A stretch of DNA of 64,000 nt from a virus (taxonomy: Duplodnaviria > Caudoviricetes), in IMG/VR virus record IMGVR_UViG_3300035498_000371, positions 96,001 to 160,000 of that record; one strand, 5' to 3'. Positions 2,324-3,260 of the stretch are shown here, one piece after another. Below the pieces are notes generated by a model. That model ran no database searches, was not told where the DNA came from, and saw only the letters and a list, made by a program, of their open reading frames with translations. The position numbers and the translations under genes were made by a program. The first letter of the stretch is position 1. Every line of letters starts with the position of its first letter.

Positions 2324-3223
2324 ATGAAGGTAGAAATTAGTGTTAAGGAATTAATGAGGTTAGAAAAGGCTGTGCGCGCAGATGAGAGATTCCAGACAAG
2401 GCTGGACATGCTTCAGTCTGTATTAGGTTCTAGACCGGCGGATTTATCTTCTGGCATGGTAATTAGTGGAAGATACGGTAACAAAGATTTAGACTTTTCT
2501 ACAAAAGATAATAAATCTAATAAGTGCTGCGGATGTGGTCGCGAGGTTAGTGATGATTCTGATAAAGAATGTAACTGTAAGGAATCAGAAAACACTGTAG
2601 AAGAGAAGGCAACTGATGATTGCGAACCTGTAGGAAGCGTTGAGTTTGGCGATATGGTATTAGGACTCAATTCAAATACCAAAGTTGGTGATATTATTAC
2701 AGTAAACTTTGATAAAGCTCCTATGGAATGCTTAGTTATTTCAGCAGATCCTGGCTCTGTAGAGGTTATTACTTATGACCTGTTACCTGAATATATGCCG
2801 ATGAATGAAAGCAGTACTAACGAAGGTGGTTATAAAGGTTCTGATCTTTGTAAGAAGCTTAACAATGAAGAGTTCATCAACAGATTCGGAAGCAATACCA
2901 GAAAGTTACTTGCAACCTATCAGGATGGTTTGCTTATGCATCTTCCTACAGAAATGCAGATATTTGGCACAAACAAATATGGTAGCAAGGATGAAACTTA
3001 TACATCACAGCTTGAGGTTATGAAAAATCCAAGAAACAGAATCGCATTCTTAACAGATGAAGACGGTGATATTTGGACGCGTTGGTATTGGCTGGAGAAC
3101 AAGACAGACGACTATTCCACCAACTTCTGCTCCGTCAACGGCTATGGCATTGCCGTCTACGGCAACGCGTCCTGTGCTGGCGGCGTTCGCCTCCGCTTCC
3201 GCCTTAGAATCCATGAACAGTAA
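2324..3223 (+). CDS. DUF6273-like (CLec-fold) protein, probable DGR target
   Basis: NEGGYKGSDL and WYWLE..FCSVNGYG..NAS..GVRLRF motifs; RBS AGGAGG; early-type CATAATATA at 2265. Confidence 0.75.
   Translation: MKVEISVKELMRLEKAVRADERFQTRLDMLQSVLGSRPADLSSGMVISGRYGNKDLDFSTKDNKSNKCCGCGREVSDDSDKECNCKESENTVEEKATDDCEPVGSVEFGDMVLGLNSNTKVGDIITVNFDKAPMECLVISADPGSVEVITYDLLPEYMPMNESSTNEGGYKGSDLCKKLNNEEFINRFGSNTRKLLATYQDGLLMHLPTEMQIFGTNKYGSKDETYTSQLEVMKNPRNRIAFLTDEDGDIWTRWYWLENKTDDYSTNFCSVNGYGIAVYGNASCAGGVRLRFRLRIHEQ
3107..3205 (+). repeat. DGR variable region (VR) candidate
   Basis: GC-rich island; 32 of 33 codons end in C/T, as expected for AAY-derived codons. Confidence 0.75.
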
Positions 3224-3260
3224 TCGCTCCGCCTTGTGCGGAAAGCGATTACTTGATCAT
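3213..3260 (+). other. Hairpin downstream of the VR (DGR target-recognition-like stem-loop)
   Basis: AGTAATCGCT-CCGC-cttgt-GCGG-aa-AGCGATTACT; no U-tract; a separate terminator follows. Confidence 0.6.

Follow-up and report, generated by a model that had tools for sequence, protein, structure and literature searches.

Evidence that the diversity-generating retroelement of a jumbo phage acts on a gene 79 kb away

A hypervariable gene end in a jumbo-phage genome

The sequence analysed here, referred to as the window, is a 64-kb stretch (bases 96001-160000) of the 238,843-bp linear virus record IMGVR_UViG_3300035498_000371, for which CheckV reports a completeness of 76%. Near its start lies a gene (2324..3223, + strand) that encodes a 299-aa protein and that is almost certainly a target of a diversity-generating retroelement (DGR). 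The gene is defined by its open reading frame (ORF), by matches to Pfam DUF6273 and phrog_21980, and by closer orthologues (P0031 and P0032) at the syntenic place in related jumbo phages. A ribosome-binding site, AGGAGG, can be read at 2310..2315 (+ strand), and AGGAGG-type k-mers dominate gene-upstream regions throughout the genome.

The 3′ end of this gene differs in composition from the rest. Between 3107 and 3205, 32 of 33 codons end in C or T, compared to 138/261 (53%) in the remaining gene (Fisher p = 1e-7), and GC content reaches 0.615 in 3110-3200, compared to 0.385 in the gene 5′ of that segment and 0.341 window-wide. An earlier note on the window, made from its letters alone, had read this GC-rich run of NNY codons as the diversified end of a DGR target. 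These counts bear out the anomaly, though the borders that the note had given (3107-3205) shift to those of the exact variable repeat (VR) defined by the template repeat (TR), which spans 91 nt at 3110..3200 (+ strand, residues 263-292) and which we call VR2. The note was likewise right that the window contains no TR or reverse transcriptase (RT). Its description of the gene as an orphan target is an artefact of the 64-kb window, as avd, TR, RT and a cis VR are all present in the same phage record.

A complete DGR cassette with an adenine-specific match to VR2

A BLAST search with positions 3060-3265 against the phage's own genome returned exactly two further copies, 175818-175904 and 177838-177924, both outside the window. 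The second of these is A-rich and represents the TR, a 91-nt repeat at genome positions 177834-177924 that contains 30 adenines and, read in the frame of the VR, 12 AAY codons, and that begins 78,724 bp downstream of VR2 on the same strand. It is flanked by a 242-aa Avd-like ORF and a 381-aa RT. The Avd-like ORF, directly 5′ of the TR, matches phrog_3206 (‘Avd protein of DGR’, E = 7.2e-7) and has no Pfam match. The RT matches RVT_1 (E = 3.6e-12) and phrog_1423 (E = 7e-63), contains GxxxSQ and YMDD motifs in its translation, and is 37-57% identical to RTs that adjoin TR/VR pairs in other phages. The first copy, VR1, lies at the end of a 291-aa DUF6273-like ORF within a fibre-like gene cluster. 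The cassette at genome 175.0-179.3 kb thus consists of a cis target with VR1, a spacer of ~1 kb, avd, TR and RT.

Comparison of the repeats revealed the substitution pattern of a DGR. Over the full 91 nt, 18/18 mismatches between VR2 and TR fall at TR adenines and none at other positions (chance probability ~2e-9). Within the 87-nt core, all mismatches are again at TR adenines (12/12 for VR1 and 15/15 for VR2), and a TR pattern in which every A is replaced by N matches just three places in the genome, namely TR, VR1 and VR2. The comparison with the whole phage genome that the earlier note had proposed thus yielded a TR-like copy beside an RT, differing from the VR at TR adenines alone, and the note's suggestion of diversification in trans by a DGR elsewhere in the phage holds, with TR, avd and RT located 78.7 kb downstream on the same record.

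We also considered a recent duplication of the VR1 target as the way in which the gene acquired its VR. This was rejected, as the two proteins are 30% identical outside the VR and their flanks differ.

Additional features of the cassette region are worth recording. The spacer between the VR1 target and avd (L005:5916-6982, genome 175916-176982) is an ORF-free, AT-rich segment of ~1.07 kb, which is unusual given how densely the rest of the genome is packed with genes. Around the cassette, three fibre-like coiled-coil ORFs (L005:1838-2467, 2574-2840 and 4528-5019) have a common N-terminal motif, ...LYPKTSAxxVxY, which could be a common docking module.

Natural alleles vary in the VR and not in the TR

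We next compared alleles of the target locus from the window and from three contigs assembled from other samples (L079, L080 and L081). Four 299-aa protein alleles fall into one 90%-identity cluster; residues 1-262 are identical save for K8E, and 14 positions differ within residues 263-286. At the DNA level, the 91-nt VR contains 25 variable columns, compared to eight single-nucleotide polymorphisms in the 1813 nt outside it (gene, spacer and neighbouring paralogue). Each VR2 allele differs from the TR at adenines alone (17, 18, 18 and 23 sites), and VR1 alleles, of which there are at least three, vary in the same manner. The TR itself is identical (91/91) in four further strain contigs (L103-L106, ~97.5% identical overall), in which VR1 differs at 16 adenine sites.

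The VR thus varies while TR and flanks stay constant, which is the asymmetry expected of mutagenic retrohoming. The earlier note had named a lack of adenine-position variation among homologues, together with the lack of a TR-like copy, as what would count against a DGR target, and such variation is present in the four alleles. Adenine-only TR/VR mismatches, together with natural alleles that vary within the VR, bear out its reading of the gene, and these comparisons lead us to regard VR2 as almost certainly a live, non-adjacent target of the phage's own canonical DGR.

Candidate homing elements downstream of the variable positions

In BPP-1, a hairpin follows the VR (PMC3240598), and potential counterparts of the BPP-1 cis elements can be recognised at the target gene. 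The final 19 nt of VR2 (3182..3200, + strand) form a GC-rich invariant end that resembles an initiation of mutagenic homing (IMH) site and contains one fixed difference from the TR, whose A at this position is replaced by C in each of the seven VR alleles. Six other phages (Fontainebleau, Shimadzu and G005-G008) show this A(TR)/C(VR) difference as well, in the context ...CCG[A/C]TT(T)C, which makes the position a good candidate for the discriminator between IMH and its TR counterpart, IMH*.

Twenty nucleotides 3′ of the VR is a hairpin (3220..3252, + strand) with a 9+4 bp stem, a CTTGT loop and a GC-rich inner stem. Its predicted DNA folding energy is -15.8 kcal/mol (z = -5.8), and 0/200 shuffled sequences were as stable. 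No T-run follows it, in keeping with the separate non-terminator hairpin that the earlier note had placed at 3213-3260. GC-stem hairpins with CT(C/T)GT-type loops are also found 3′ of VR1, of the VRs of two related phages (G001 and G002), of the orthologues P0031 and P0032, and at many of the 80 metagenomic loci described below, and no such hairpin follows the TRs. By comparison with BPP-1, the hairpin at 3220-3252 is a candidate target-recognition cruciform.

These elements suggest how VR2 might be diversified. By analogy with BPP-1, TR RNA would be reverse-transcribed by an RT-Avd complex with adenine-specific misincorporation, and the resulting cDNA would home onto VR2 and replace it, presumably directed by the IMH-like end and the downstream hairpin. 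Some points weigh against so full an account: the natural variation was seen between assemblies of different samples; retrohoming is modelled on BPP-1; and the roles given to the IMH-like end and the hairpin are assigned by analogy.

The target is a C-type-lectin-fold protein with a jumbo-phage N-terminal extension

The target protein matches Pfam DUF6273 (PF19789) over residues 160-292 with 25.1 bits, compared to a gathering cut-off of 23.5. In an AlphaFold model based on a 77-sequence alignment, the predicted local distance difference test score (pLDDT) exceeds 95 for residues 112-297, and this segment (2657..3214, + strand) is assigned to a C-type-lectin-like (CLec), DUF6273 domain on the basis of the model and structural searches. 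Foldseek against the PDB returned weak C-type-lectin matches only, and the fold became clear after an exhaustive VIA-align search. The best match (Z 15.4) was 9qa6, the DUF6273 N-terminal domain of the Thomasclavelia ramosa IgA peptidase (PMC12402451) and the sole solved DUF6273 domain, followed by Lcl-CTD from Legionella (Z 8.4), the DGR protein TvpA (2y3c, Z 7.2) and a long list of C-type lectin domains at Z 5.5-6.8. The CLec-fold C-terminus that the earlier note had supposed is thus borne out. The residues observed to vary (263-286) map to a beta-hairpin (267-281) and its flanks in the model, and the same hairpin has been described for DUF6273 DGR targets (PMC10743442). As modelled, they would lie on what is probably the ligand-binding face of the CLec fold.

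Residues 1-110 are predicted to form a helical hairpin and a linker of low pLDDT. This N-terminal portion, modelled with low pLDDT, has no Pfam or PHROG family match and no similarity to fibre proteins, and no signal peptide or hydrophobic segment was seen in the protein sequence. The jumbo-phage orthologues P0031 and P0032, which also have a Lys-rich N-terminus, retain a CxCG...CxC cluster found at residues 69-85 (window 2528-2578); the ~190-aa homologues discussed below lack it. Possibly a zinc knuckle, the cluster might provide an additional function in the jumbo-phage protein.

Small DUF6273 homologues recur in replication and early modules

An exhaustive HMMER search identified 395 relatives, most of which are ~190 aa and consist of the domain only; an IMG/VR pattern search with the whole target protein confirmed no relative. 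Two homologues are encoded by isolated phages. In Acutalibacter phage Fontainebleau the gene lies between DNA polymerase I and a helicase, and in Roseburia phage Shimadzu (orf43) it lies between a DNA methyltransferase and an Erf recombinase; a diversified ‘protein of unknown function’ has been mentioned for Shimadzu (PMC11792537). Both phages encode a DGR RT away from the small homologue, and in both the VR of the homologue differs from the phage's own TR at adenines only (16/16 mismatches at ~25 kb in Fontainebleau, 15/15 at ~14 kb in Shimadzu). Four further genomes (G005-G008) gave adenine counts of 17/17, 17/17, 16/17 and 15/15 at distances of 10-47 kb. In one of the four, VR and TR are on opposite strands; a cis VR is located ~0.7 kb from the TR. 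Matches between a VR and a non-adjacent TR were thus found in 7/7 genomes tested (this phage, Fontainebleau, Shimadzu and G005-G008), at distances of 10-79 kb.

A scan of IMG/VR identified 80 loci that encode proteins of 179-254 aa and fall into 13 clusters at 70% identity. Their NNY-rich tails vary within clusters, and an RT is present within 6 kb at 2/80 loci. At 13 representative loci we examined three ORFs on each side (75 proteins in total). The neighbours include primases (D5_N, PriCT, DUF5906), DNA methylases, helicases, HU, helix-turn-helix regulators, RecT, dCMP deaminase and RtcB. Neither the top 25 of 42 Pfam neighbour families nor the top 25 of 103 PHROG neighbour families include one of tail or capsid type, and single structural matches may occur among the 17 Pfam and 78 PHROG families ranked lower. 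Of the homologues in other metagenomic contexts, one occupies the third position in an early operon, behind a repressor and together with Tad2-like, ERF and YqaJ genes; another is located between DNA polymerase A and a VapE primase; and another follows ThyX in a 146-kb phage.

Three relatives of the jumbo phage (G001-G003), whose RTs are 52-56% identical to the one described here, each contain a cis VR, that of G003 being cut by the contig end. We found in them no remote VR matching their own TR and no target orthologue beside the virion RNA polymerase (RNAP) beta′ gene, which indicates that the remote target is not ancestral to that whole group.

Promoter motifs and local gene context

The genome contains promoter motifs of the types established for phage AR9 (PMC5312081), with ~25 sites for the early motif ATATATTAT-N6-G upstream of genes and 43 sites upstream of genes for the late motif AACA-N6-TA, compared to eight expected. 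Examples of AR9-type motifs are at window 4270-4279 and at genome 171765 and 174442, and the temporal class of most genes could be predicted from sequence. A scan for sigma-70 promoters found fewer sites than in shuffled sequences and is hence uninformative for this phage.

Forty nucleotides 5′ of the target's start codon is a promoter-like motif, ATAATAT-N6-GTAGT (2266..2283, + strand), a variant of the early consensus with a putative promoter function. It has two exact matches in the window, compared to 0.04 expected, and six related sites genome-wide, each 14-52 nt 5′ of a same-strand gene. Scored with a position weight matrix of the canonical early motif it reaches 4.8 bits, compared to 10-26 for the training sites, and as a canonical early promoter it was rejected. 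The ‘early-type motif’ of the earlier note is therefore a weak match in itself; what stands is the shared variant motif, neighbours with early motifs and the lack of an AACA-N6-TA late motif within 150 nt of the target gene. The target lies within a stretch of early-motif genes, three of which follow it. The fibre-like gene directly 5′ of the VR1 target has an AR9-type late motif and is probably co-transcribed with that target. On these motifs, the temporal class of the VR2 target cannot be assigned.

The target gene has the virion-RNAP beta′ gene on one side and RtcB/PrfH genes on the other, and the fibre-like cluster is 77 kb away. An intrinsic-terminator-like hairpin with a T-run (3309..3346, + strand) marks the probable end of its transcription unit. 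Adjoining it is a very divergent DUF6273-like paralogue of 280 aa that lacks a VR (3385..4227, + strand; 24% identity to the target over 177 aa, E = 0.02). The paralogue has no Pfam match and no TR-like match, and its C-terminal region is AT-rich. The paralogue carries a separate early-type motif and extends by 28 aa at its C-terminus. Strain contig L081 contains it as two parts of 222 + 54 aa, which suggests that it may be dispensable.

The divergent neighbour (869-2152, - strand) encodes the N-terminal part of the virion-RNAP beta′ subunit, 30-33% identical to AR9 g145 and to proteins of Staphylococcus jumbo phages. It is separated from its 121-aa continuation (genome 95263-95628) by an HNH/NUMOD-type homing-endonuclease ORF (2-634, - strand); in G001-G003 the two parts are just ~30 nt apart. 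Either an intron or a homing endonuclease gene that stands on its own could account for the insertion. An Rfam search of window 1-4500 plus 3 kb upstream gave nothing at gathering score and no group I intron, leaving the suspected intron unconfirmed.

Downstream, 1.6 kb 3′ of the target, an RtcB RNA ligase (4837-6048, + strand) is followed by an RF-1/PrfH-like GGQ protein (6063-6659, + strand), a pair of the phage-borne RNA/ribosome repair type. RtcB also occurs by a small DUF6273 target at 1/13 other representative loci. Further downstream, the gene at 10967-14257 (+ strand) encodes a 1096-aa multidomain protein with an endonuclease (phrog_15137) at the N-terminus, a P-loop/polynucleotide-kinase-like segment and a GNAT acetyltransferase at the C-terminus; this protein is kept beside the RNAP gene in G001-G003.

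Possible functions of the target protein and the source of its variation

The earlier note had suggested an intracellular binder rather than a tail fibre, and the gene context of homologues in many phages agrees with this part of its reading. The reading that we favour, at about even odds, is that the infected cell produces the target protein as a soluble binder outside the virion, with a specificity that the DGR varies. The proposal draws on the stand-alone domain of the homologues, on their replication/early placement in modular temperate phages and on the missing late motif here. More tentatively, we propose that the small DUF6273/CLec proteins of early and replication modules, such as the jumbo-phage gene, Shimadzu orf43 and the Fontainebleau gene, could constitute a widespread class of DGR-hypermutated, non-virion intracellular phage proteins. 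If so, DGRs would diversify not only receptor-binding proteins but also an intracellular, ‘antibody-like’ factor, which might act against variable host defence or takeover targets, and one template would vary both a cis (virion) and a remote (intracellular) target.

Several observations weigh against a non-virion role. Gene position is indirect evidence, as jumbo phages scatter structural genes, and the divergent neighbour, a virion-RNAP beta′ gene, is itself expected to be late. About 340 genome sites score equal to or above the target's 4.8-bit early-motif match. DUF6273 is also present in long phage proteins annotated as tail fibre or receptor-binding protein, and published work assumes small DUF6273 targets to be Mtd-like (PMC10743442). 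Diversification, moreover, is not universal in the family, since two members in replication modules (P0034 and P0053) have no VR signature. Such members imply that the protein has a function of its own that has been repeatedly taken over by DGRs.

A doubtful though credible alternative is that the target forms part of the virion, as a small receptor-binding or decoration protein of the Mtd type that would dock non-covalently on a fibre or capsid and widen host range even though its gene is remote from the fibre module. Most phage DGR targets are tail or receptor-binding proteins (PMC10743442, PMC8144416), and in BFVD the DUF6273 fold is part of long proteins that bear the names tail-collar fibre, receptor-binding protein or tail endopeptidase. 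The use of one TR for VR1 and VR2 means that both proteins could be tuned together, and the virion-RNAP neighbour and scattered gene order of jumbo phages would accommodate a structural gene at this place. Minimal members of the family, however, comprise the CLec domain alone (179-200 aa), which leaves no space for an attachment domain, and the N-terminus of the target lacks similarity to fibre proteins. The listed neighbours have replication, early or nucleotide-metabolism functions at 13/13 representative loci and in the isolates, and the top 25 listed families include none of tail or capsid. Unlike the VR1 operon, the target has no late motif within 150 nt, so that neither gene position nor motif points to the tail-module encoding and late expression that would be looked for in a tail-fibre or Mtd-like protein.

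As to the source of the variation, it is very improbable that VR2 is a passive relic, or that ordinary recombination or gene conversion has made it uniform with VR1. The 79-kb gap between VR and TR does exceed that of almost all surveyed phage-associated non-adjacent targets, which lie within 50 kb (PMC5758913). Yet the four alleles contain four VR2 sequences whose TR differences are all at adenines, in flanks that are almost invariant; these sequences are not copies of VR1 alleles, and the IMH-like end and hairpin are intact. The asymmetry among alleles all but rules out a relic or simple gene conversion between the two VRs. Diversification by a DGR of the host or a co-infecting element is just as improbable, as the phage TR fits VR2 at every non-adenine position over 91 nt and is invariant across strains with intact avd and RT. 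The phage's own DGR, acting at a distance, remains the reading that we adopt.

Several elements of this system have been published before, including non-adjacent targets, phage DGRs with two targets and small DUF6273 targets (PMC5758913, PMC10743442, PMC11792537). New here are the setting in an AR9-like jumbo phage, a group whose isolates were reported to be DGR-free; the distance of 79 kb, compared to ‘nearly all within 50 kb’ for phage-associated DGRs (PMC5758913); and the regular non-adjacent placement of this target class in replication/early modules, which is not stated in the cited literature. By its sequence, a complete and apparently active DGR can be placed in the AR9-like group of multisubunit-RNAP jumbo phages. 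A phage DGR acting over 79 kb also bears on the detection of remote targets, as metagenome DGR surveys look beside the RT and explicitly miss them (PMC8144416). The architecture recurs in the 7/7 genomes tested, each with a cis target by the cassette and a small DUF6273 target in a replication/early module. If the small targets are non-virion proteins, phage DGRs would extend beyond tropism switching to a natural system of hypervariable intracellular binders. Shimadzu and Fontainebleau are isolates with cultured hosts, which makes these candidates directly testable.

Comparison with known DGR systems

The system closely resembles the DGR of phage BPP-1 in its cassette of Avd, TR and RT, its adenine-specific differences and its VR at the 3′ end of a gene for a C-type-lectin-fold protein. 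It also shares the GC-rich invariant VR 3′ end that is slightly unlike the TR (IMH versus IMH*) and the hairpin 3′ of the VR (PMC3240598). In contrast to BPP-1, two targets are served by one TR, one of them 78.7 kb off, in a jumbo phage with multisubunit RNAPs. The 299-aa target lacks the beta-prism and beta-sandwich attachment domains of Mtd, and the downstream hairpin, with its CTTGT loop of 5 nt, begins ~20 nt 3′ of the VR.

The closest parallels to the target itself are the small second targets with DUF6273 domains in phages of gut Clostridia: Shimadzu orf43, the ‘small’ targets of the Faecalibacterium phages Lelie and CP11, and nd4_tgt2 and nd12_tgt2. These share the family and fold, the C-terminal VR and a TR used in common with a larger target (PMC11792537, PMC10743442). 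The gut phages are 35-55 kb, mostly temperate, with VRs 10-30 kb from the TR, whereas here the distance is 79 kb in a genome of 239 kb or more; the jumbo-phage orthologues additionally carry the ~110-aa N-terminal extension with its CxC...CxC cluster. Placement in replication/early modules is not remarked on for the gut targets, and their function is treated as unknown or Mtd-like (PMC11792537, PMC10743442).

Remote targets are also a feature of cellular DGRs, such as those of the Treponema denticola TvpA family and of Legionella, which similarly combine distant VRs, adenine-only differences and a CLec fold. Those DGRs are chromosomal, whereas here the large phage genome accommodates a separation of 79 kb without uncoupling the inheritance of the target from that of the phage. 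Wu et al. (2018) found phage-associated non-adjacent targets to lie nearly always within 50 kb, as expected (PMC5758913).

Among jumbo phages, the genome resembles AR9/PBS1-like and Staphylococcus phages (MarsHill, S6) in its split virion and non-virion multisubunit RNAP genes and its homing-endonuclease insertions, and AR9-like phages in its early and late motifs. AR9-like isolates have been reported to be without a DGR, the RT of MarsHill being retron-like with no Avd, TR or VR (10.1101/2020.12.14.422802), and none of the DGR-diversified CLec-fold (FGS) domains turned up when 224 jumbo phages were surveyed (PMC7824862). In contrast to these isolates, the lineage described here and its three relatives (G001-G003) carry a full DGR.

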